Shown piece after piece: positions 963-46,262 of a DNA stretch of 64,000 bases. This DNA comes from an uncultured Verrucomicrobia subdivision 3 bacterium (GTDB lineage: Bacteria; Verrucomicrobiota; Verrucomicrobiia; Limisphaerales; UBA8199), in assembly GCA_903912925.1 (NCBI GenBank), contig CAIWJG010000631.1, positions 3,004-67,003 of the forward strand. Reading direction: 5' to 3'. A program made the translations under genes and the position numbers. The notes under the pieces were generated by a model. The model saw only the letters and a program-made list of their open reading frames with translations, had not been told where the DNA came from and ran no database searches. Every line of letters starts with the position of its first letter. Position 1 is the first letter of the stretch.

Positions 963-1125
963 GCGCCAACGCGCGACTCGCTTCTGCAGGAAACACGGAT
1001 TGCATCCGTGCCTGTAGGTGTTGCATCATCCCCGAAAGTTAACTGAGATGAATAGACCGCGCATGAATACCAGACTCGCCACCGCACATCAAATCCCGGC
1101 AAGAACCGTATTGTCCCGACAGTGG

Positions 1126-1402
1126 CAGGGCTACTCTAAAGTCCGGCCAGTTGAGGGAAGATCATGTTCTGCAGCCCTGGAATCCGAAGACCGAAGGCCG
1201 AAATCCGAAGCCCGAAGGATCTCAACATCGAACATCGAACATCGAACATCCAACATCGAACATCCAACGGCGGCGGCGGCTCCCTTTCAGGTATTGGATG
1301 TTGGATGTTGGATGTTCGATGTTCGATGTTTCCTTCTTCGCCCTTCTTCGGTCTTCGGGTTTCGGGTTTGGAATGGCCCGTGCCGACTTTAGAGCAGCCC
1401 TG
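1126..1402. repeat. Hairpin element H1: ~277-bp imperfect palindrome with microsatellite arms
   Basis: Outer stem cagggctactctaaagtccggc (1126-1147) pairs with gccgactttagagcagccctg (1382-1402). Middle arms are ccgaag-type units (~1180-1218) against cttcgg-type units (~1332-1371). Inner arms are aacatcg/aacatcc 7-mers (~1224-1268) against ggatgtt/cgatgtt 7-mers (~1294-1330). GC-rich loop cggcggcggcggctccctttcagg. Confidence 0.85.
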
Positions 1403-2638
1403 CGACAGTGGCTCCTGCTAGCGTTCTGCTTCTTCGGCCTGGCCCAGGCGGTCAGCGCTGCCGACCAAATTACCCTGGCCGATCACGGCAAGAGCAAGTA
1501 CCGGATCGTGCTGCCGGCGGCCGCGATCCCAGCCGAACGTTATGCGGCAGAAGAACTGCAGCATTACCTCGAAAAGATAAGCGGCGCGCTACTCCCCATC
1601 GTAACGGATGCGGTAAAGCCGACCGCGTATGAAATCCAACTTGGCAATACCGCGCATCTGGCCCGGCTGCGCTCGAAGGTGGATTTCGCAGGACTGGGCC
1701 CGGACGGCTTTGTGCTGGGCGTGGAGGGCAAGACTGTCATCATCGCCGGCGGCAGACCGCGCGGTACGTTGAACGGCGTCTATACGCTTCTGGAAGAGAA
1801 ACTCGGCGTGCGTTGGTTCACGCCGGAAGTCGAAGTCGTGCCCAAGCTTGACCGCGTGCGGCTGCTTAAAGCTACGGAAACGCGAGTCCCAGCGCTGCAA
1901 AACCGCGACGTCTTCTGGCGGGAAATGATGCGCAACGCAGACTTCGCGGCGCGCCACCGCCTCAACGGGCAGCATTACGGCCTGACGGAGAAGCAAGGCG
2001 GTGCCTTCACCGTTTATTTCCCCTTCGTCCACAGCTTTGACGCTCTGGTTCCGCCTGACCTGTATCAGGCGCACCCTGAGTATTTCCCGCTCATAAACGG
2101 CAAGCGCAAAAGCGGCTACGTCCAGCGCTGCCTGTCCAATCCCGACGTGCTGAAGATCTCGATCGCGCGCGTGCAGCAGTGGATCAAAGAACACCCGGAG
2201 GCGACCATCTTCAGCGTCTCGCAGAACGACGCGATCGAGAACTGCCGGTGCGAACAATGCAAGGGGCTGGACGACGCGGAAGGCAGCCCCGCGGCTTCGC
2301 TGCTCAAGTTCGTGAACGCCATTGCCGAAGCCATCGAGCCAGACCATCCCAACATCCGCATAGATACGTTGGCCTACCAATACACGCGCAAGGCACCCAA
2401 GACAATTCGTCCGCGCCACAACGTAATCGTGCGCCTCTGCTCGATTGAATGCTGCTTCTCGCACCCCCTCGACACCTGCCCGGCGGAGGAGAACAAGCAT
2501 TTCCGGGATGATATTATTGCCTGGGGCAAGGTCGCGCCGCTGATCTACGTGTGGGACTACACGACCGACTTCGGCCACTATCAGCAGCCGTTCCCGAACT
2601 TCGATTCGTTGCAGTCGAACGTCCGGTTCTTCGTCTAG
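1373..2638 (+). CDS. DUF4838-like secreted glycoside hydrolase, fragment 1 of 2 (ends at in-frame TAG 2636-2638)
   Basis: The ATG at 1373 gives the signal peptide MARADFRAALRQWLLLAFCFFGLAQAVSA. The mature N-terminus ADQITLADHGKSKYRIVLPAAAIPAERYAAEELQHYLEKISG and the motif SQNDAIENCRCEQCK are typical of DUF4838. The part of the track ORF upstream of 1373 only translates the hairpin repeat. Confidence 0.8.
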   Translation: MARADFRAALRQWLLLAFCFFGLAQAVSAADQITLADHGKSKYRIVLPAAAIPAERYAAEELQHYLEKISGALLPIVTDAVKPTAYEIQLGNTAHLARLRSKVDFAGLGPDGFVLGVEGKTVIIAGGRPRGTLNGVYTLLEEKLGVRWFTPEVEVVPKLDRVRLLKATETRVPALQNRDVFWREMMRNADFAARHRLNGQHYGLTEKQGGAFTVYFPFVHSFDALVPPDLYQAHPEYFPLINGKRKSGYVQRCLSNPDVLKISIARVQQWIKEHPEATIFSVSQNDAIENCRCEQCKGLDDAEGSPAASLLKFVNAIAEAIEPDHPNIRIDTLAYQYTRKAPKTIRPRHNVIVRLCSIECCFSHPLDTCPAEENKHFRDDIIAWGKVAPLIYVWDYTTDFGHYQQPFPNFDSLQSNVRFFV

Positions 2639-3163: not shown

Positions 3164-3321
3164 GAGTAACTGTTCAGGTGTGGGGCAGACCTCCGGTCTG
3201 CCGGTTCACGGAGTCTCTGACTCCGTGCCCATCGGGTCGCCGGAACACCGGGCCAGAGGCCCGGCTAACCGGCAGACCGGAGGTCTGCCCCACATTCTGA
3301 CCTGAACAGTTACCGCTCTCC
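3164..3321. repeat. Compound palindromic intergenic element (multi-stem, ~158 bp)
   Basis: ggagtaactgttcaggtgtggggcagacctccggtctgccggtt (3164-3206) is mirrored by aaccggcagaccggaggtctgccccacattctgacctgaacagttaccgctctcc (3267-3321). Nested small hairpins: cacggagtctctgactccgtg and ccgggccagaggcccgg. Confidence 0.8.
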
Positions 3322-6610: not shown

Positions 6611-8041
6611 ATGACAAAGCGTTTCTTTCTTTCCGTAGTCGCAATTCGCCTCGCCACGAGTTCCGCGCTCACGCCCCTGCTCGCCGCGGAGCTGGAGAAA
6701 GAGCCGGTCGCCCTCGGCACACGCGTGGAGATGTTTGTGGACGATTGGCTCATTGATGCAGGCCGCTCGCCCGGCACGGTATCGCTGCAACTGACCCCGC
6801 CCGTAAAGCGCGAGATTGTGCTCGTGACCGACAAGCCGTGGGAAGGGCCGGACAGCGCGTATTTCAGCGTATTCCAGGACGGCCCGCTGGTGCGGCTTTA
6901 CTATCGTGGCATTGTTCCGGCGGGTGACACCTCCATCGGGCAGGTCACTTGCTACGCGGAAAGCACCGATGGGATTCATTTCACCCGGCCTAACCTGGGG
7001 TTGGTTGAATTCGAGGGCTCGAAGGAGAACAACATCATTTACCGGGGCATCGAGGCACACAACTTCGCGCCGTTCCGCGATGCCAATCCGGCGGCCCGAC
7101 CGGAAGAGCGTTACAAAGCGATGGCCGGCATCCAGAGCAAACTCTACGCCTTCGTTGCCCCTGACGGCATCCACTGGACAAAGCTGCAAGCTGACCCGGT
7201 GATGACCAAAGGCGCGTTCGATTCGCTCAACCTATCCTTCTGGGACGACCGGACCCAGAACTACCGCTGCTTCTCCCGGCATTTCGAAGAGGGGGTGCGG
7301 GCTATTCAGAGTTGCACCTCCACGGACTTCATCCACTGGGCCGACCCGGTGCCTAATCGCTACCCCAAGCGCGCGCCGAAGGAGCACTTCTACACCAACG
7401 GCACGCGCCCCTGCCCCGGCGCGCCGCACATCTACCTGTCGTTCCCGAAACGCTTCGTGCCGGAGCGCAAGAAGTTCGCCGACTACAAAGAGATAGGCGT
7501 ATCCGACGCGGTGTTCCTGAGCAGCCGCGACGGGGAGAACTGGGACCGCACGTTTCTGGAAGCCTGGGTGCGCCCCGGCCCGGACAACCGCAACTGGACG
7601 CAGCGCAGCAACATGCCCGCCTGGGGCATCGTGCAACTCGATCCAACGGAGTTCTCGATGTACATCACCGAGCACTACGAATGGCCCGACCACCGGCTGC
7701 GCCGCATCACCGTGCGCCGACACGGCTTTGCTTCTGCACATGCCAGTGCGGCGGGCGGCGAATTCACAACGCGACCTGTGACGTTTACCGGGAAGAATCT
7801 GATACTGAATTACGCGACCTCAGCCGCGGGCGCGATCCAGGTCGAGGTGCAGGACGCGCACGGCAAGCCCATCGAAGGCCGGTCGCTTGCCGACATGCCG
7901 GTGCTGTTCGGCGACGAACTGGACGCGGTCGTCAGTTGGAAGTCTGGCAGCGACCTGTCCAGCCTTATCGGCAAGCCGGTGCGCTTCCGATTTGTCATGA
8001 AAGACGCTGATCTATTTGCTTTGAGAACTGGAACATTATGA
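6611..8041 (+). CDS. Secreted beta-propeller glycoside-hydrolase-like protein (GH32/43-clan-like fold, family not assigned)
   Basis: ATG 6611 gives the signal peptide MTKRFFLSVVAIRLATSSALTPLLAA. LFVDDWLID-type N-terminus and a C-terminal beta-sandwich-like part (NLILNYATSAAGAIQVEVQD...VRFRFVMKDADLFAL). CDS confidence is high; function confidence is low. Confidence 0.75.
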   Translation: MTKRFFLSVVAIRLATSSALTPLLAAELEKEPVALGTRVEMFVDDWLIDAGRSPGTVSLQLTPPVKREIVLVTDKPWEGPDSAYFSVFQDGPLVRLYYRGIVPAGDTSIGQVTCYAESTDGIHFTRPNLGLVEFEGSKENNIIYRGIEAHNFAPFRDANPAARPEERYKAMAGIQSKLYAFVAPDGIHWTKLQADPVMTKGAFDSLNLSFWDDRTQNYRCFSRHFEEGVRAIQSCTSTDFIHWADPVPNRYPKRAPKEHFYTNGTRPCPGAPHIYLSFPKRFVPERKKFADYKEIGVSDAVFLSSRDGENWDRTFLEAWVRPGPDNRNWTQRSNMPAWGIVQLDPTEFSMYITEHYEWPDHRLRRITVRRHGFASAHASAAGGEFTTRPVTFTGKNLILNYATSAAGAIQVEVQDAHGKPIEGRSLADMPVLFGDELDAVVSWKSGSDLSSLIGKPVRFRFVMKDADLFALRTGTL

Positions 8042-11000
8042 TTGCTGCACGAACGAACCAAGTGGGGAGAACATCCAACAACCAACATCGGCCGAACACC
8101 GAACATCGAACATCCAACATCCAACATCCAACGTCGAACATCCAACGGACGATTCCTGCCCCATCAGTGGGTGTTGGGTGTTCGAGGTTGGATGTTAGAT
8201 GTTTCCAGATCGTAATTGGTCTTATTGTGTTGCTCACAGCCGCGGCTGCTAGCCGAGGTGCGCAGCTAGACTTCCCGCCGCTCTGGCAGACCGACCTGCA
8301 GACGTTCCTGGAAAGCTCCGGGCTCGTCGCCGACCTCAAAGGCGACGGCCATGAGCGAGCGGTCATTGCGGGACGCGAGGATATGTTCGCCCTCGACGGC
8401 CAGGGGAAGGTGTTGTGGCGCTGGCGGTCCAAAGGACGCTTTATGACATACCCGGCGGTGCTGGTTCGCCCACCGCAGCCGTCCCTGGTTTACGCAGCGG
8501 ACAACAGCGGCTTGCTTACCTGCCTGGACGGAACGGGCAAGGAGGTTTGGCATGCGAAGTTGAATGCGCCGTCGAGCTGGTCCGCTTCTGTCGTTTGCGA
8601 TCTCAAGGGCAATAACGATGCTGATGTCATTCAGACCGACGAGACGGGCACGGTCTGGGCCTTCGAGGCGTTGACCGGCAAAGTGCTATGGCAGACGAAG
8701 CTCAAGGGCATACCCGTCAGCCCGGCGGTTGGCGACCTGGACGGTGATGGCAAGCCGGAGATCGTGGTGGCTACTGGGCAAGGAATCATCACAGCCCTCG
8801 GCGGCAACGGCACGGTGCTATGGGAGCGGACGATCGGCGGGTCGTCCCAATCCTGGGCCACCGCGGCGCCCGTCATCTTTGCTGGATCTGATGGGCGCGG
8901 TCGCGTGGCGGCTGCCTCAAGCGGCGGCCAACTCGTGTGCCTCGATGGCAAGGGCGAGGTATTGTGGCGCCGTCCAACTCATGGCGCGGCGGCTAGCTCG
9001 ATTTCCGTGGGTGATCTCGACCTGGATGGCCGGGCGGATATTTGTCTGATCACCCAAGCCGGCGTGATCTATCGCTTTGATGAAGACGGACGCGCAATCT
9101 GGGAGATTGACATGCAGGGCCGGAGCCTGGCACCCGGTGCGATCATCGACCTAGACGGCGATGGAAAGCCGGAATACGTGCTTAGCACGCAGGATGGCTT
9201 CTTGCAGGTCCTGAACGAAGCGGGCGAGTTCCTCTACCGCTTCCACTTCAGCAATCGCACAATCAATGTAACGCCAACCTTTGGCAACCTATCGGCGGAT
9301 TCGCCGGGGCTGGAAATGCTCATAACGGGCGGCGAAGCAGGCATTGTGTTCTGCTTACACACGCCGGCGGCAACCAACGCCGTCGCGCAGTGGAAGTCTT
9401 ATCGCGGCGACGTGCGCAACAGCGGTTCGTGGTTTGGCCTGCGGCAGTCGGGCGCGGTCCGGATCTCGCCGGTGAATCTGGCCGCCGATGAGGTGCTGAG
9501 CGGCCAGAGCCTGCGGTTCACGGTCGAGAATCCCCAGACGGAGCGGCATCCGCTCACCGCCACAGCCGTCTGCGTCCGTCCCGACGGCGCGAGGCAGGTC
9601 ACGACCACAACCGTGCTGGGCCGGAGCGGCGAGCTGCTGATGCCGTTGGATGTCACCGCGCCGGGCACCTACCAATTCAGTTGGACCTTGGCCGACGCAG
9701 GCGGGCGCACGCTGGTATCCGGCGGTCGGTCGCTGTTTCTTCAGCCGTTTGCCAACGACCGCGCGCTCGTCACGCGCGCGCTGGCTGCGCTCCGCGCGGC
9801 GGCGGAAGCAACAGATCCAGTGCTTCCACTTTCCGCCACGGCGCTTCGGCACGAAGCGACATCGCTGGAAGAGCGAGCCCGAGCGGTCGCCTCGCTTCAA
9901 GACTCCCTGCCCGGCAGCGGCGTAACCGGTTCGCAGGTCGTCCTGGATAAGTCAGCGGCGCTGGTTTCGCACGCCAAGCGGGCGCTGGCAGTCGCTGGTG
10001 TGATTCACCAGGCGACGGCCCTTGGTCAAGGCACAAGCCTGGTCGCTTTCCAGGGGACGCTATGGGAGAACCGGAAGGTGGACGAACAACTGCCCGCCCA
10101 GGCGGCCAACCCGCTTCGCATCACCCGCAAGGTGGTTCCCGGCGAGCATGAACCGGTCAGCTTGAACCTGTTCAACGTAACCGACCATGAGTTGCTGGTG
10201 CGCGTGCAGTTCCATGCTCTGACCAACGGGGTTGTGGTGGTTCCGCATCGGGCGGTGGGGGTGCCCACGTCTTTGGGTGAGGTCGCCTGGGACGCGATGC
10301 CCGAGTTGGACGAGAGCGGCACGCTGACCATCCCGTCCCTGGCCAGCCGGGAATTATGGCTGGATGTGGACCTGGGCGCCGCGAAACCGGGCAGCCACCA
10401 GGTCAAACTGCGTTTGCAGGCGCTCAACGGCGCGGGCGTGCTGGATGCGCCGACGCATCCTCACTCTGTGCCGCCGCCGGAGACTGCGATTGAAATTACG
10501 CTCCAGGTTGCCGACTTTGCTATGGCCGCGCCGGGTGATTTCCGCCTTTGCACGTGGGCCGCGCCGGAGGCAGCGCAACTGCCCGACCTGCTTGCCCACG
10601 GGAACAATGTCTTCACCGCTTCATTGCCTGCAGCGAAATATGACGCTCAGGGTCACTTGGCCGCGTCTGACTACAACGCGCTGGACCCGGTGTTGAGCAG
10701 GCTGCGAGGGAAGGATGTGGTGCTGATGTTGATGGGGATTCCCAGCCTGCACGGCGAATCCGGCAGCGCGGCTTATCGAGGCGACTTGAAGATATTCCTG
10801 GATGAGCTGGTGACACACATGGCGGGGGCGGGCTTCGATATAAAGCATTTTGCGCTGTATCCGTTTGACGAGCCGGGCGGTGTCGGTTGGACGCTGGTCA
10901 ATCCACTAGTCGAGTTCGGGAAGCAGGTCCGCGCGATCAACCCCGACCTGATGCTGTATGTGGACGGCGGGGGCGAGCTTCCCATGTTCCAGGCGATGGC

Positions 11001-17578: not shown

Positions 17579-17703
17579 CCAGCTCATTATGGTCGAGATG
17601 GGAACGCCGGGTGAGGGCACCCGGCCTACAAGAGGGCGGTTTTGCGGGAGTTGTAGGCTTGGTGCCCTCACCCGGCTGGGGATGACATGGCCATAATGGG
17701 CTG
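17579..17703. repeat. Palindromic intergenic element (~125 bp)
   Basis: ccagctcattatggtcgagatgggaacgccgggtgagggcacccggcctacaa (17579-17631) is mirrored by ttgtaggcttggtgccctcacccggctggggatgacatggccataatgggctg (17651-17703). Confidence 0.75.
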
Positions 17704-17739: not shown

Positions 17740-17825
17740 CTCGATTGTTCCTCGATTGTTCCTCGATTGTTCCTCGATTGTTCCTCGATTGTTCCTCGAT
17801 TGTTCCTCGATTGTTGCTCTATTGG
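17740..17825. repeat. 11-bp tandem repeat ctcgattgttc x ~7.5
   Basis: Perfect 11-nt periodicity from 17740 to 17805, then two degenerate units. The TAG stop of 17819..18610 lies in the last degenerate unit. Confidence 0.95.
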
Positions 17826-22677: not shown

Positions 22678-22880
22678 GAGTTACATGAGTTACATGAGTT
22701 ACATGAGTGCATGGGTTACATGGTTACATGGTTACATCGTTACATCGTTACATCGGGCAAGGGCAAGGGCAGCGGCTCCTCATGTAACTCATGCAACCAT
22801 TTAACCATGCACCCATGCACTCATGTAACCATGCAACCATGCAACCATGCACCTCATGTAACCGTGTAACCGTGTAACCA
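22678..22880. repeat. Hairpin element H3: ~200-bp imperfect palindrome with gttacatg-type 8-9-mer arms
   Basis: Left arm: gagttacat x3, ggttacat x3, cgttacat x3 (22678-22754). Loop ggcaagggcaagggcagcggctcc. Right arm: tcatgtaac / catgcaac / cgtgtaac units (22780-22880). Confidence 0.85.
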
Positions 22881-31968: not shown

Positions 31969-32128
31969 CTGTTTACAGTAGTTCGACCTCCAGAATGCCG
32001 ACCCGCACCTGATTGTCGATTCGATTTCAATACCCGCCTTACCAGTGCGTTCGACCCTCCGCATGTGCTCGGCGCTTGCGCGCAGACGATGCCCAGATTA
32101 CACCGTCAAAGCGTCGGGAGAACTGGAG

Positions 32129-32172
32129 GAGTACAAGCGGAATACAAGCGGAACACGAGCGGAATACAAGCG
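32129..32172. repeat. 11-bp tandem repeat gaatacaagcg x4 (slightly degenerate)
   Basis: gagtacaagcg gaatacaagcg gaacacgagcg gaatacaagcg. Confidence 0.9.
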
Positions 32173-32249
32173 AGCATCTGGCTGGCAACAGGCTGGCAGG
32201 TGGCTTGCATCACGCTTGCCGCACGACTCCGGGAGGCGTTCCTTGGTTC

Positions 32250-33181: not shown

Positions 33182-36067
33182 CTAAGTTTGATGCAGAGGC
33201 ATTAGAATGGAAACCGAGGTGCCGGTGCCAGGTTTCGTCGTAATCTCCAGCGACCCACCAACCTGCTGGACGCGCTCGCGGAGGTTCTGCAAGCCGCTGC
33301 CCGCGATGGTTCGCGCTGGATCGAAGCCGCGCCCGTCGTCTTTGACGGTGAGGTTCAGTTGCCCGTCGTTCAGTCTTAAGCCAACGGTGACCTCGCGCGC
33401 CCCGGCATGTTTGGCAACGTTGGCCAGCGACTCCTTCACCACGGCCAGCAATTCATGCCGCACGCGAGCGGGCACCTCAACCGAACTTTCGCCGGCGGGC
33501 AAGTCCAGCCGGCATTCCAGGCCGGCCGCCTGACAAAATCGTTCGGTCAATTCGCCGATGAACGCTACCAGGCTGCCGGTGTTGTCGCAGCGCGGATTGG
33601 TCGTCCACGCCAGCTCGCGCAACTCGTGCGCCAGCGACCGTGTCTCGCCGGCCAGGCTCTCAAGCTGCCCGGACGCAGCGCTGCCGCGGCGCTGAGCGGC
33701 CTCGAGCTGCAGCGCCAGGCCGGTGAGGCTGGCGCCCAGGTCGTCGTGCAGATCCCGGGCGATACGAGCCCGCTCTTCCGCCAGTACGGTGACCTGCTGG
33801 GCGCGCAGGGTGCGCCCTTGCCAGCGGAGCCGGTAAGCTTGCACGCCCCCTGCGGTGCCGATAACGAGCGCGGCGCACAGGACGTAAAAGGCCCACGTTT
33901 CGTAAAAGTGCGGCGCAACGTAAAACGAGAACTGCTCGCCTTGCTCGTTCCAAACGCCGTGCGAGTTGCAAGCCGCGACGCAGAAGGTGTAGTCGCCGGG
34001 GCGGAGGTTGGTATAGAACGCCACCCGGCGGTTTTGGTCATCCTCAAGCCAGTCCGCGTCGTAGCCCTCGAGCCTATACTTGAAGCGCACCCGCTCGGGC
34101 GCCGCGAGACTGTCGGCCGTGTAATGAATTTCCAGCACCCGCCCCCGCCCCGGCCTGATCTGCATTCGAGGTTGGATGTTCGATGTTGGATGTTCGATGT
34201 TCTTGCCCCCGCCCGCGCATCCATCCCCAAACACCACTTCCCCATTCGCCCGCACCTGCTCAATCACCACCGGCGACGCCAATTCCGCGCTCTGCATTTC
34301 CTTGGGATCAATCATCACGACGCCCTGCACAGTGGGAAACCAAATCCGCCCCTGCTGGTCCTTGCAACCGGCGGGCTGATTGTCCCCGCCATTGCACTCG
34401 CTGTTCAGCATCCCATCGGCCTCCCCGTAAGCGGTGCACTCCACCCTGGCCCGCCGCCCGGCCGCCACCTCGTTCAGTTGCTGCCGCGAAATGCGGTAAA
34501 TGCCGCGCAACCCGCTCAGCCAAAGATAGCCGAAATCATCCTCCTGGATGTTATTCACCACGTTCTCGCCCAATCCCTGCTCCTTCGTGAAGGTGAAGAA
34601 CCGCCGCTCGTTCTCCCCCGCCTGCCCATTTCTACTTTCTGCTTTCTGCTTTCTGCTTTGTTCAGCCCCTGCGGGCACAAACCGGTTCAGGCCGTCCTCC
34701 GTGCCCACCCAGAAAACCCCATCAGTGTCCTCATGAATCCACCACGCACGGTTATTGTGCTCGCCGCGGTTGGTTTTGTAGGCCGTGAATCTTCCATCCT
34801 TGAGGCGATTCAGCCCGCCGCCATAAGTCCCAAACCACATGTCCCCACGCCGGTCCTGATAGATAGCGCGCGCGTCACCGTGAGAAAGCCCCTGGTTGGT
34901 GGAATAGCTGCTCCACTGCTCACCATCCCGGCACAGCACTGCGGTCCTGATGCCAAGCCATATCCGGCCCTGCCGATCCTCGAACAGAGCCTTAAGGTCC
35001 TGCCCATCCCCTATTTCTCCCGGGGCGGGCAGCATCTGCCATTCCCCGCCTCGGAAACGCGCCAAGTGAGGGCCCGGCCAGGCTACCCATACCGCGTCGT
35101 GCCGGTCGGCCAGGAACACCCCGATCCGGCCCCACTCCCTGCCCTCCTGCGGGGCTTTCACATTCTCCACTTTCCCTGCTCGAATGCCGCTGAGGCCCGC
35201 GGCCGTCCCCACCCAACTCGTGCCGTCGGTGCCCTGGGTGACCGCTTGCGTGTCATCGTTCCGCAACCCCTCACGCCGTGAATACGCTCTGATCCGCTTC
35301 GGCTCCAACCGGAACAGCCCGGTCGTCGTCCCCACCCAAAGATCCCCTTCGCGATCTTCCAGCACGCGGGTGACATTCAGATCCTCGGGAAACTCAGGCG
35401 CCGCAAAAGGCTCCAGCCGCCCCTGAATCAGCCGGTGCAAGCCAGTGTGGCCGCCCTCGAGACGACGAGTGACCCATACCCGGCCATCGCTGGTCCGGCA
35501 AATCCGCTGTTGCCAGGGCCTTGATTCCAGGCCCGCGCTCGCCACCACTGTCCAGACGCCCTTGCTGCCCCGCCAGATGCTGGTGCCGGTGCAGAGCCAG
35601 AGCGAGCCGTCGGCCGCCCCAAGAAACGAAAAGCACGACGAGAGATCCGTGGACGGCACCTCCGGCGGGCTGAGCGAGGTCAACGACTTCGTGTTCAAAT
35701 CCAGCCGCTGAAGGCCACCCCCTACAGCCGCCCCCCCGAGCAGGACCAGCAGTCGTGAGGAACTCTCCTCGCCCAACTGCCTTACAGGATACTCACTGCC
35801 CGCCGAACCGAACGTCCAGGTTTGCACCCGCCCCCCGCGCGCCAGCGCCACCCGGCCTGCCTGCGGCGAGAACCAAACGCCGCCCGCCCGAGCCGCGCAG
35901 AGCGGACCAACCGGATCAGTCACCCCCCCTTCCGCCTCATAGCGCTCGAACCGATGATCGCGGTAATACAACAAGCCGTCGCCGGCACCGATCCACAAGC
36001 TGCCATCCTTCTGGTCCACCGCCAGATCGTTAAAACCGTTCCCGACACCGTGCCATCGCTCTTCCAC
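33182..36067 (-). CDS. Sensor histidine kinase: Reg_prop beta-propeller repeats + Y_Y_Y + TM + HisKA_3 + HATPase_c (5' end apparently displaced by a frameshift)
   Basis: Repeated DG.LW.GT..GL motifs. Y_Y_Y segment RPGDYTFCVAACNSHGVW. TM segment WAFYVLCAALVIGTAGGV. H-box ARIARDLHDDLGASLTGL. ATPase segment DDGRGFD...GSGLQNLRERV. The track ORF starts at a GTG directly after a TGA and has no N-terminal signal or TM segment. Confidence 0.9.
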   Translation of the reverse strand: MEERWHGVGNGFNDLAVDQKDGSLWIGAGDGLLYYRDHRFERYEAEGGVTDPVGPLCAARAGGVWFSPQAGRVALARGGRVQTWTFGSAGSEYPVRQLGEESSSRLLVLLGGAAVGGGLQRLDLNTKSLTSLSPPEVPSTDLSSCFSFLGAADGSLWLCTGTSIWRGSKGVWTVVASAGLESRPWQQRICRTSDGRVWVTRRLEGGHTGLHRLIQGRLEPFAAPEFPEDLNVTRVLEDREGDLWVGTTTGLFRLEPKRIRAYSRREGLRNDDTQAVTQGTDGTSWVGTAAGLSGIRAGKVENVKAPQEGREWGRIGVFLADRHDAVWVAWPGPHLARFRGGEWQMLPAPGEIGDGQDLKALFEDRQGRIWLGIRTAVLCRDGEQWSSYSTNQGLSHGDARAIYQDRRGDMWFGTYGGGLNRLKDGRFTAYKTNRGEHNNRAWWIHEDTDGVFWVGTEDGLNRFVPAGAEQSRKQKAESRNGQAGENERRFFTFTKEQGLGENVVNNIQEDDFGYLWLSGLRGIYRISRQQLNEVAAGRRARVECTAYGEADGMLNSECNGGDNQPAGCKDQQGRIWFPTVQGVVMIDPKEMQSAELASPVVIEQVRANGEVVFGDGCAGGGKNIEHPTSNIQPRMQIRPGRGRVLEIHYTADSLAAPERVRFKYRLEGYDADWLEDDQNRRVAFYTNLRPGDYTFCVAACNSHGVWNEQGEQFSFYVAPHFYETWAFYVLCAALVIGTAGGVQAYRLRWQGRTLRAQQVTVLAEERARIARDLHDDLGASLTGLALQLEAAQRRGSAASGQLESLAGETRSLAHELRELAWTTNPRCDNTGSLVAFIGELTERFCQAAGLECRLDLPAGESSVEVPARVRHELLAVVKESLANVAKHAGAREVTVGLRLNDGQLNLTVKDDGRGFDPARTIAGSGLQNLRERVQQVGGSLEITTKPGTGTSVSILMPLHQT
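34168..34202. repeat. Half-copy of the H1/H2 7-mer array inside the kinase CDS
   Basis: gaggttggatgttcgatgttggatgttcgatgttc is translated on the minus strand as GKNIEHPTSNIQP, in frame, within the kinase. Confidence 0.85.
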
Positions 36068-39731: not shown

Positions 39732-39763
39732 CCATAGCGCCCCCATAGCGCCCCCATAGCGCC
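39732..39763. repeat. 11-bp tandem repeat ccatagcgccc x3
   Basis: Three consecutive units at 39732-39742, 39743-39753 and 39754-39763. An inverted partial copy ggcctatggcgctc lies at ~39804. Confidence 0.9.
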
Positions 39764-41292: not shown

Positions 41293-41354
41293 ACTCAGTA
41301 GGCCCCTTATGCCATTTCAGCGGCAGGATGTCGAGTGCCGACGAAGCTGGTGCG

Positions 41355-41578
41355 GAGGCCCCCGGGGCTGCTCTAAAGTCCGGCCAGTTGAGGGAAGATC
41401 CTGTTCTGCAGCCCTGAAATCCGAAGACCGAAGGCCGAAATCCGAATTCCGAGAATGGCCTGATTCGATTGGCTGCTGCTCCGCCGGGGTGGCTATCAAT
41501 TCGGACCTCGGCCTTCGGATTTGAGCACTGCTCGCTGGGAACGGGAGGACCTTAGAACAGCCCTGGGAGGCCCCTGCC
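41355..41578. repeat. Hairpin element H4 (shares the outer module with H1 and another module with H5)
   Basis: 41371-41446 matches 1134-1209 at 74 of 76 nt (hand count). Inner palindrome aaatccgaagaccgaaggccgaaatccgaattc...gaattcggacctcggccttcggattt. The right module 41527-41565 is the reverse complement of 46059-46097. Confidence 0.85.
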
Positions 41579-46038: not shown

Positions 46039-46057
46039 GCGCCCCTGGGGCCGGAAC

Positions 46058-46262
46058 AGGGCTGCTCTAAGGTTCTCCCGTTCCCAGCAAGCAGTTCCCT
46101 GTAGGCCGCGTGCCCCCACGCGGCGTTCGGGCTCAAATCCGAAGCTCGAAAACCGAAAAGGGCCAGCCACCCTGGGGGCGGTGTTTCGGTGTTTCGGTAT
46201 TGGGTGTTGGATGTTTCGGTGTTTCGGTGCTTCGGTTTTCGGATTTAGTCAGAGCGCCCCCG
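46058..46262. repeat. Hairpin element H5 (ggtgtttc 8-mer arm; shares a module with H4)
   Basis: The left module gggctgctctaaggttctcccgttcccagcaagcagttc equals the reverse complement of the H4 right module at about 35 of 39 nt (hand count). aaatccgaagctcgaaaaccgaaa pairs with cttcggttttcggattt. Right arm ggtgtttcggtgtttcggtattgggtgttggatgtttcggtgtttcggtgcttcgg. Confidence 0.8.

Follow-up and report, generated by a model that had tools for sequence, protein, structure and literature searches.

Five long imperfect palindromes, each built around a G+C-rich centre, lie within the window, the 64,000-nt stretch of DNA that was analysed here as a whole. The question raised by this locus is what these palindromes are and whether they act on the genes beside them. 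In the original prediction they were regarded as one family, and operon insulators/terminators with a riboregulatory role, cruciform-forming DNA and a non-autonomous mobile element class were put forward as candidates. All five elements (H1 to H5) were recovered where they had been predicted, and by Tandem Repeats Finder and an inverted-repeat search their arms were found to consist of tandem 7-9-nt units with a reverse-complement array on the opposite side. When arm complementarity was compared with shuffled controls, all five folded better, with z-scores from -11.7 to -2.3. The palindromes are real and non-random, and the puzzle they pose is largely solved: H1, H4 and H5 are best explained, with a probability of about 85%, as members of a MITE family of foldback-like build, in a genome where heptamer arrays readily arise.

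Ends, anatomy and folding of H1

H1 carries, in order, a left terminal inverted repeat (TIR) with a subterminal module, a CCGAAGR array, an AACATCS hairpin cassette, a YCTTCGG array, and a right module with the second TIR. Its features are the following:

1117-1125: left copy of the H1 target-site duplication, 9-bp CGACAGTGG, present as a single-copy site in orthologous loci
1126-1402, plus strand: H1, complete 277-bp MITE copy (sequence, TIR and duplication analysis, folds)
1126-1141, plus strand: left TIR CAGGGCTACTCTAAAG, with 1 mismatch to the consensus
1126-1179, plus strand: local left-end stem, bases 1-9 pairing with bases 46-54 (CAGGGCNGC / GCNGCCCTG; alignment of 101 left ends)
1184-1217, plus strand: left-arm heptamer array (CCGAAGR)n in the family frame (Tandem Repeats Finder, family anatomy)
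1224-1330, plus strand: central cassette 'B' (Tandem Repeats Finder, inverted repeats, family anatomy)
1332-1369, plus strand: right-arm arrays CCTTCTTCGC and TTCGGGT, the complement of the CCGAAG units on the left arm (Tandem Repeats Finder, family anatomy)
1387-1402, minus strand: right TIR, read as CAGGGCTGCTCTAAAG on this strand (TIR search, family anatomy)
1403-1411: right copy of the target-site duplication, 9-bp CGACAGTGG, perfect and directly outside the H1 end

Cassette 'B' is itself composed of an (AACATCS)x6 arm (1224-1268), a 25-nt G+C-rich loop (1269-1293) and an (SGATGTT)x5 arm (1294-1330); Tandem Repeats Finder reported AACATCG x6.4 and TTGGATG x5.3 in H1. The TIR consensus CAGGGCTGCTCTAAAGTC, 16-18 bp in length, stands at the termini of H1 and, in the same form, at those of H4. 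A search of the window with the 16-mer TIR, allowing up to 3 mismatches, returned 5 matches against 0.53 expected, and all five fall at ends of H1, H4 or H5. It had been stated that neither a TIR with target duplication nor a known RNA family explains the elements. The second half of that statement holds, with 0 Rfam matches in the window; the first fails for H1, H4 and H5, and in H1 and H4 the 16-nt TIRs are accompanied by perfect 9-bp direct duplications.

H1 folds far better than its dinucleotide shuffles (z=-11.7), and folds of its minus strand and with DNA parameters are as strong as that of the plus strand, as is expected of a true DNA palindrome. The potential for cruciform formation is thus real, as the DNA-parameter fold of H1 indicates; it follows, however, from the element being built as a palindrome and provides no evidence of function. 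Across 101 left ends, the left-end stem is 92.6% paired, compared with 26-45% in slid controls, and none of 500 shuffles reached its score. Three of its pairs have changed on both sides (UA in 26 and GC in 11 copies at one pair, and two singleton double changes). A possible structural constraint is suggested by these changes, and only suggested, because kinship among copies can inflate compensatory counts. Compensatory change in this stem is not something that a purely selfish model demands.

Insertion of H1 into the DUF4838 gene

All five elements had been placed in tail-to-head spacers. H1 was instead found within a 5' coding region, and H2 within an ORF that begins at 8038. Two positions in the gene interrupted by H1 are central:

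1063-1065, plus strand: ancestral ATG of the DUF4838 gene, cut off from the gene body by H1 (in-silico excision, orthologue N-termini, orthologous DNA)
2636-2638, plus strand: in-frame TAG in the DUF4838 gene, Lys in all orthologues; second lesion of the interrupted gene

Excision of H1 together with one duplication copy joins ATG 1063 to the signal peptide in frame, yielding MNTRLATAHQIPARTVLSRQWLLLAFCFFGLAQAVSAADQ (predicted start MNTRLATAHQIPARTVLSRQWLLL...). As its closest homologues, 603-aa DUF4838 proteins were found, from Verrucomicrobiota wherever named; they match the excision reconstruction over its full coverage and have the N-terminus MNT[RK]...LLSR[QK]W.LL..CLFGL..ASAADQ. At the DNA level, the H1 site is uninterrupted in four orthologous loci (L108-L111), which constitutes a precise empty site. 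Since excision restores the orthologue N-terminus and four orthologous loci read through, H1 is an insertion at codon ~21 of the DUF4838 gene.

The start codon of this gene therefore has to be reassigned. ATG 1373, formerly held to be the only plausible start, lies inside the right end of H1, and the '..DFRAAL' peptide ascribed to it is encoded by the right TIR itself; the ancestral start, according to excision and to orthologous proteins and DNA, is ATG 1063, upstream of H1. Likewise, the ribosome-binding region thought to be buried in the stem is a consequence of the gene having been split by the element, the orthologues using the upstream ATG. The element-encoded peptide was found as the N-terminus of no DUF4838 orthologue. 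Use of the element's ATG as a gene start was considered and ruled out by the mixed orientation of insertions; shorter DUF4838 orthologues start otherwise. Because the 286 bases added by the insertion shift the frame relative to the true DUF4838 start and an in-frame TAG follows, the interrupted gene is most simply read as a pseudogene. The effect of H1 on this gene is incidental and damaging. For annotation, this means that the element produced a false 'only possible start codon' and masked a pseudogene.

H4 and H5, two further copies in the window

Transposon ends are common to H1, H4 and H5 and were found in neither H2 nor H3, so that the five elements do not form one family. The relevant features of the two further copies are:

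41354-41362: GGAGGCCCC, perfect 9-bp target duplication at the left end of H4
41363-41565, plus strand: H4, 203-bp MITE copy (TIR and duplication analysis, family anatomy)
41566-41574: GGAGGCCCC, perfect 9-bp target duplication at the right end of H4
46057-46262, plus strand: H5, decayed copy with a sister-type end on the left (TIR search, end comparison, fold)

The 9-bp sequence duplicated around H4 differs from that around H1. The cassette of H4 is the commonest type, a plain 60-nt hairpin, and its fold exceeds dinucleotide shuffles with z=-5.0. Judged from its parts, H4 is a chimera: its left end is canonical, its core is of the common 'A' type and its right end belongs to a sister type. 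This sister end type, CAGGGCTGYTCTAAGGTYCTCCCGTTCCCAGC, was found at the right end of H4, at the left end of H5 and in a short element in contig L064. H5 is an old, decayed copy: its right terminus (46243-46262) is of the sister type broken by a 4-nt insertion, no target duplication is any longer recognisable in its flanks, and its right arm has been enlarged by CGGTGTTT units. Its weak fold (z=-2.3, with 2 of 200 dinucleotide shuffles as good) is consistent with this age and decay.

A dispersed family with one frame and many cassettes

The 76-nt outer module, which had been proposed as a search query, proved common to H1, H4 and more than 100 public contigs. The 24-nt subterminal motif CTCTAAAGTCCGGCCAGTTGAGGG has exact matches in 106 metagenome contigs, many of which terminate within the element because repeats break assemblies; similar copies are therefore a hazard for metagenome assembly as well as for annotation. 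In the representative-genome collection, the same motif gave one match, at the end of a short contig in a fragmented MAG labelled Hydrogenedentes. Protein homologues indicate a host of the family in Verrucomicrobiota, unlike that label.

Both ends are present in 45 copies from metagenome contigs, with lengths of 177-412 bp, and over 101 left ends the first 58 nt are 96% identical. Perfect 9-bp flanking duplications were found in 20 of the 45 complete copies and duplications with one mismatch in about nine more; the duplicated 9-mers vary by locus, have no consensus and repeat only where one locus was sampled twice. About 7 of 43 scorable copies lack a matching duplication and were counted against the MITE reading; inter-copy recombination, decay or the choice of right end in the analysis may account for them. 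In addition, about 25 loci have a left end with no right end within 900 bp. These were ruled out as full-length elements, all of them being shortened or decayed copies. The window itself holds three family copies (H1, H4 and H5).

Throughout the family the frame is fixed: TIR, left module CCGGCCAGTTGAGGGAAGATCATGTTCTGCAGCCCTG, (CCGAAGR)n, central cassette, (YCTTCGG)n, right module GGGTTTGGAATGGCCCGGACCGA and TIR. Within this one frame, at least seven central cassette types were found, including those with tandem arms of their own, namely AACATCS (H1 and 5 other loci), CACGAATNA, CGCAGATNA and GTGAAAC, and also a pure CCGAAGR type.

By every criterion that could be tested, except for a cognate IS, H1 and H4 are MITEs. 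They combine TIRs, fixed-length duplications of varying sequence and dispersed copies; the family's elements are small (177-412 bp) and without a transposase gene, the six-frame ORFs over the arrays being translated repeats; and empty-site polymorphism is present at the H1 site (L108-L111). The proposal of a non-autonomous mobile element class was accordingly borne out for H1, H4 and H5 by their TIRs, duplications and family copies, and not for H2 and H3.

Arm slippage, cassette exchange and the question of regulation

Two insertions, each recovered from different samples, show how the arms change: copies of one insertion differ chiefly through gain or loss of repeat units. One (L015 and L086) differs by 7 and 18 nt and 2 substitutions, and the other (L063 and L077) by exactly one 7-nt unit and 0 substitutions. 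Left and right unit counts are uncorrelated (Spearman rho=0.14, p=0.36), so nothing enforces a symmetric stem, and selection for such a stem was ruled out. Every copy folds strongly, with a mean z of -8.3 and about 75% of bases paired. Furthermore, the AACATCS cassette carries its loop the same way round in 5 loci and inverted in L046 (1 of 6), a difference that arm-arm recombination would produce. Recombination within the arrays is also the probable source of the chimeras.

When 34 copies were excised in silico, the restored sites proved to be intergenic or no more than ~100 nt away from the start or stop of a gene, the elements pointing either way with respect to the gene beside them. This is the pattern in which purifying selection on random insertions would leave them. 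The same sites near gene boundaries would also favour the view that the elements are selected cis-regulatory structures, acting as insulators/terminators or as translational riboregulators in which the ribosome-binding region is hidden, with their spread being secondary. We consider this view very unlikely. Gene-end location is equally expected from purifying selection, and a directional terminator or riboregulator would not leave both orientations. In favour of the view, the hairpins are very stable, and an ATG conserved 30 nt from the element's right end leaves the element in frame. Against it, the lengths of the two arms are uncorrelated and vary from strain to strain, and at H1 the element breaks a coding sequence; the orthologues of that gene start at the upstream ATG, none of them with the element peptide. 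The weak covariation in the left-end stem is a further point in favour; further against it, Rfam gave 0 matches in the window, and neither H1 nor H2 is followed by a T-tract or a terminator-like site, such sites being no commoner there than in shuffles. With both orientations, positions near either gene end, freely varying arms and no T-tract, the proposed combination of insulator/terminator and riboregulator is not supported, and neither are the regulatory readings as a whole.

Heptamer arrays inside a sensor-kinase gene

Heptamer arrays also occur outside the MITE copies, even within a protein-coding gene. The sensor kinase gene at 33182-36067 on the minus strand reads through two of them in frame:

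34165-34202, minus strand: solo (AACATCS)x5 array, in frame as KNIEHPTSNIQP, in a sensor-kinase loop (array search, orthologue comparison)
34629-34659, minus strand: solo (GCAGAAA)x4 array, in frame as QSRKQKAESRN, in a second loop of this kinase (array search, orthologue comparison)

Orthologues of the kinase carry other low-complexity inserts at both loops. At one loop, the same codons are occupied by (AAAGCAG)x4 in three genomes and by (AAATCCG)x4 in a fourth; at the second, AGTCCAA, AAATCCG or AACATCS arrays are found depending on the lineage. Split sensor-kinase calls in related contigs, which frameshifts caused by arrays might explain, come from sequences with many fragmented genes that are probably error-prone long-read assemblies. 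It follows from these comparisons that arrays homogenise internally while diverging from each other, which explains why the repeat unit differs between copies, as had been noted for the five palindromes. The dismissal of six-frame ORFs over the repeats as artefacts is appropriate for H1 and does not apply generally, since the sensor-kinase arrays are read in frame. In-frame heptamer arrays are evidently tolerated in protein loops.

H2, H3 and the standalone hairpins

The remaining two palindromes are of a different kind, and the MITE explanation does not extend to them:

8070-8206, plus strand: H2, AACATCS-type tandem-array hairpin with unequal arms; no transposon ends or duplication; absent from syntenic L110
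22678-22880, plus strand: H3, GTTACAT-type tandem-array hairpin; no transposon ends or duplication

CAGGG ends and TIRs were looked for in both by the window TIR search, and none were found. Target duplications were likewise absent around H2, H3 and 9 other standalone hairpins, except in an 11-mer palindrome family with duplication-like flanks (perfect 8/8 in L051, 8/9 in L008). Folding relative to dinucleotide shuffles gave z=-4.3 for H2 and z=-7.7 for H3, and in H3 an 8-nt unit was reported by Tandem Repeats Finder in runs of x9 and x12. The AACATCS unit of H2 also builds the H1 cassette. An ORF starting with an ATGA overlap at 8038 runs through H2 in frame; a TTG in the right arm of H2 is an alternative start that would also yield a normal signal peptide. 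In the syntenic contig L110, the position of H2 is occupied by just a ~60-nt spacer. The orthologous site of H3 lies between the upstream stop codon and the start of MBOAT, and four states of it were found:

L115 (MBOAT 91% identical to the window): empty, TAG tgcccggac ATG
L116/L117 (MBOAT 90% identical to the window): ~100-nt hairpin with 4+4 GTTACAT units and a different loop
Window: 203 nt
L114 (MBOAT 99% identical to the window): same hairpin, with a right arm ~130 nt longer and a triplicated higher-order block

The presence/absence polymorphism that had been suggested as a check is therefore observed at orthologous loci of H1 (empty in L108-L111), H2 (absent in L110) and H3 (empty in L115). 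H2 and H3 are, from these alignments, lineage-specific. The graded series at the H3 site indicates that repeat-armed hairpins stay at their locus and enlarge in place, asymmetrically. For the first origin of H2 and H3, a decayed insertion and a fold-back copy of a pre-existing array are candidates.

For H2 and H3, and for these two alone, generation in place is the leading account. Its extension to all five elements, H1 included, as palindromic microsatellites made by fold-back copying that never moved, with the outer module as ancient homology, is barely credible. H3 clearly grows at its locus, heptamer arrays arise and turn over genome-wide, even within genes, and many standalone hairpins have unrelated units, all of which suits such an account; it leaves unexplained, however, more than 100 copies at unrelated loci whose 58-nt ends are 96% identical, fixed 9-bp duplications of differing sequence, and the precise H1 empty site in four orthologous loci.

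The lack of target duplications at H2, H3 and most standalone hairpins is also what would be predicted by the chemistry of REP/REPIN-type elements, moved as single-stranded hairpins by a tyrosine (HUH) transposase of RAYT-like or IS200/IS605-like type. Such elements are, as here, hairpin-forming, intergenic and multi-copy. This alternative is nonetheless highly improbable: the clean 9-bp duplications and classical TIRs of H1, H4 and 20 or more relatives are not products of that chemistry, the standalone hairpins have, by eye, no common end or GTAG/CGTC head, and a Y1 transposase domain is absent among the ~40 window proteins. Moreover, the elements (137-277 nt) are 5-10 times as long as REP palindromes (20-40 nt).

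A census of 690 kb returned 251 short-period arrays, mostly heptamers. Among the 120 that lie outside MITE copies, about 10 form standalone palindromic pairs with diverse units. Identical unit families (AACATCS, GTTACAT, AAACGTG, AAAGCAG and CACGGAT) recur at unrelated loci, which makes an independent in-place origin hard to reconcile with the data. One could suppose, although we find it rather doubtful, that H2, H3, the standalone hairpins and the MITE cassettes represent a separate self-propagating DNA class that spreads without TIRs or target duplications. Copies of such DNA would arrive in protein loops and intergenic spacers as well as at the apices of hairpins, and the MITE would be one carrier only; its driver could be a lineage-specific process that makes and homogenises 7-nt arrays.

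A foldback-like MITE model and its possible parent

The foldback-like MITE reading of H1, H4 and H5 can be set out as a sequence of events. Each element consists of a frame of 16-18-bp TIRs (CAGGGCTGCTCTAAAGTC), conserved subterminal modules, a CCGAAGR arm on the left with its complement on the right, and an exchangeable central cassette. A DDE-type transposase supplied in trans would bind the ends and insert the element via a 9-bp staggered cut, leaving the 9-bp duplication; this chemistry is suggested by the fixed duplication length. The palindromic shape stems from the foldback build, and selection on RNA structure is not required. After insertion, the arrays act as microsatellites, with each arm gaining or losing 7-nt units on its own, and the unit sequence drifts as a block owing to internal homogenisation. 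Shared arrays probably permit recombination or template switching by which cassettes and ends are swapped, as in the chimeric H4. At the DUF4838 gene, the insertion of H1 into codon ~21 put the frame out of step with the true start. H2 and H3 are part of a larger set of repeat-armed hairpins in the same genomes, without these ends or duplications, that grow by slippage and block duplication.

The source of such a transposase was sought in several ways. No inverted TIR pairs 600-4000 bp apart were found in ~690 kb, Pfam gave no transposase domain among the ~40 window proteins, and tblastn with E. coli YhhI gave no match in related contigs. Neither a transposase nor an autonomous partner was thus found in the window or in 720 kb of related contigs. 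Scanning of viral contigs with the terminal 18-mer returned one chance match inside a coding region. The E. coli H-repeat element that encodes YhhI ends in CAGGGAAAGATC / CAGGGCAAGATT, with CAGGG termini, and the likeness of the MITE terminus to this end stops after CAGGG(C). The YhhI domain pair, DDE_Tnp_1_assoc with DDE_Tnp_1, is one that we take to be associated with ISAs1. Elements of the ISAs1 family typically have CAGGG ends and 8-10-bp duplications, with which the termini and the 9-bp duplication of the MITE would agree. The ISAs1 family may thus be regarded as a lead to the MITE parent, and as a lead only, because the shared sequence ends at CAGGG(C). The CAGGG termini are the one feature behind this assignment.

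Comparison with known systems

Several known systems share individual traits with the family described here. Mobile DNA of Verrucomicrobiota has, to our knowledge, been little studied. Bacterial MITEs include the Correia elements (CREE) of Neisseria, Chunjie of Geobacter and Nezha of cyanobacteria (PMC3184786). Like these, the present elements are small (177-412 bp) and non-coding, with TIRs and a fixed-length target duplication; their many dispersed copies fold into long stem-loops, and insertion occurs near or into genes, sometimes with reading-frame fusion. They differ in that the arms are heptamer microsatellites of variable copy number, with an exchangeable cassette between them. Their duplication has 9 bp, where Correia elements have TA, the host phylum is Verrucomicrobiota, and no cognate IS was identified.

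In architecture, the closest match is the Foldback (FB) group. In Tm1 of root-knot nematodes, the inverted arms are composite, with tandem repeats whose number varies and arms that are unequal even within one element; its duplications are of 9 bp and show no target consensus, and MITE-like derivatives exist (PMC3169594). The present elements likewise combine inverted tandem-repeat arms of variable, unequal copy number with a 9-bp duplication. FB and Tm1 elements are, however, eukaryotic, have a Mutator/FB-type transposase and 13-31-bp units, and reach up to kilobases, whereas the present elements are found in a bacterial host, with 7-nt units and a length of ~200-300 bp. The resemblance is taken as an analogy in architecture, and not as homology or as membership of the group.

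A modular organisation is also known from BOX elements. The boxB module, ~45 nt in length, is no heptamer and does not form two complementary arrays, and the sequences are unrelated to those studied here. BOX elements of Streptococcus pneumoniae are modular and MITE-like, with variable internal tandem modules and stable structures, and are presumed to be mobilised in trans (PMC3184786). Heptamer arrays, in turn, have been described as a lineage trait, with TAACTGA in Beggiatoaceae (MacGregor 2015, as cited in PMC4853749) and heptamer tandem repeats (STRR) in some cyanobacteria; a heptamer excess has also been noted (PMC4692102). The arrays reported here are similar in being lineage-wide, of 7 nt, mostly intergenic, and both direct and inverted. 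They differ in units and phyla, and the consulted parts of those sources describe such repeats neither as arms of transposons bounded by TIRs and duplications nor as arrays read in frame in which one unit has taken the place of another inside a gene. With the ISAs1 insertion sequences, as represented by the E. coli H-repeat (YhhI), the likeness consists of the CAGGG termini and ends after CAGGG(C); a transposase of the ISAs1 type was found neither in the window nor in related contigs.

In the literature search, no description was found of a bacterial element bounded by TIRs and duplications with complementary heptamer-array arms and swappable cassettes. What is new here is a bacterial MITE family with the build of a Foldback transposon, none having been described for bacteria in the literature searched. 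This family provides a natural system in which microsatellite slippage, concerted unit change, loop inversion and module swapping can be followed within a transposon.

Additional dispersed palindrome families

Other palindromic elements were also found in the window. A 148-bp palindrome at 3165-3312, bearing no relation to the heptamer family (the MITE with CCGAAGR-repeat arms to which H1 belongs), recurs in eight loci of related contigs, including a 100% identical copy at the orthologous site in L108 and a 91% copy in L053, an unrelated locus, and probably constitutes a second MITE-like family. Furthermore, a 73-bp palindrome within 17600-17680 (GCCGGGTGAGGGCACCCGGCCTACAA...) is present at approximately 93% identity in 11 loci of related contigs and is a third dispersed hairpin family.

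Another palindrome, carrying five TACCTCCGTAG 11-mers per arm, was detected at two unrelated loci, L051 2772-2886 and L008 636-748, the latter being the same as L031 4163-4275. The L051 copy lies between perfect direct repeats of 8 bp (CCAATGGA), and in L008 the flanking repeat matches at 8 of 9 positions. This palindrome may represent an independent mobile element of foldback type, with duplications of 8 bp. The window itself holds the following tandem 11-mer arrays, for which neither an inverted partner nor any relative among the related contigs compared was found:

17740-17824, CTCGATTGTTC, 7.7 copies
32128-32225, GGAATACAAGC, four copies, followed by GCAACTGGCTG, three copies
39732-39763, CCATAGCGCCC, three copies

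Rearrangement and assignment of MITE copies

Within the AACATCS type of the MITE's central cassette, where heptamer arms enclose a G+C-rich loop, the 24-nt loop was inverted in one of six copies (L046, minus strand) relative to H1, L038, L067, L069 and L078, the result that arm-to-arm recombination would give. In addition, the right end occurs twice in the 412-bp copy at L004 393-804 (minus strand): the element's final ~40 nt stand both before and after an unrelated palindrome of ~130 nt (CCGGAGCGCAGCCTTCAG...CTGAAGGCTGCGCTCCGG), a layout pointing to nested insertion or to rearrangement at the terminus.

The only match in the representative-genome collection, L001 (CAIYET010000299.1), is a 2-kb contig that terminates inside the element and belongs to a MAG labelled 'Candidatus Hydrogenedentes', whereas the homologues of the window's proteins indicate Verrucomicrobiota; the contig may be mis-binned.

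Repeats within and beside coding sequences

The hairpins H2 and H3 consist of tandem arrays. The H3 site lies upstream of an MBOAT gene. In L114 (1140-1490), from a strain whose MBOAT protein is 99% identical to that of the window, only the right arm is extended relative to the window (22678-22880), by ~130 nt, a ~64-nt higher-order block of the 8-nt units having been triplicated. At H2, the ATGA at 8038-8041 overlaps the upstream stop with a downstream ATG, and the reading frame from this ATG (8038-8260) is stop-free through the whole hairpin. An alternative candidate start, a TTG near 8185 in the right arm, would also yield a normal signal peptide (MDVRCFQIVIGLIVLL...).

The DUF4838 gene (1063/1373-3157), which carries H1 in its 5' coding region, contains an in-frame TAG at 2636-2638, where all close orthologues encode Lys (VRFFV*HGVKSLFEQG in the window versus VRFFVKHGVKSLFEQG). 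Taken together with the H1 insertion, this gives the gene the look of a pseudogene, provided that the TAG does not stem from an error in the assembly. Separately, a 411-aa gene between DUF4838 and galK in the syntenic contig L110 is missing from the window.

Heptamer arrays also occur in frame in two surface loops (34165-34202 and 34629-34659) of a Reg_prop/Y_Y_Y sensor kinase (33182-36067, minus strand). Their unit sequence varies among orthologues at identical codons, for example (AAAGCAG)x4 versus (AAATCCG)x4 (window, L118, L119 and L120); such variation represents the concerted turnover of a microsatellite located within a protein.
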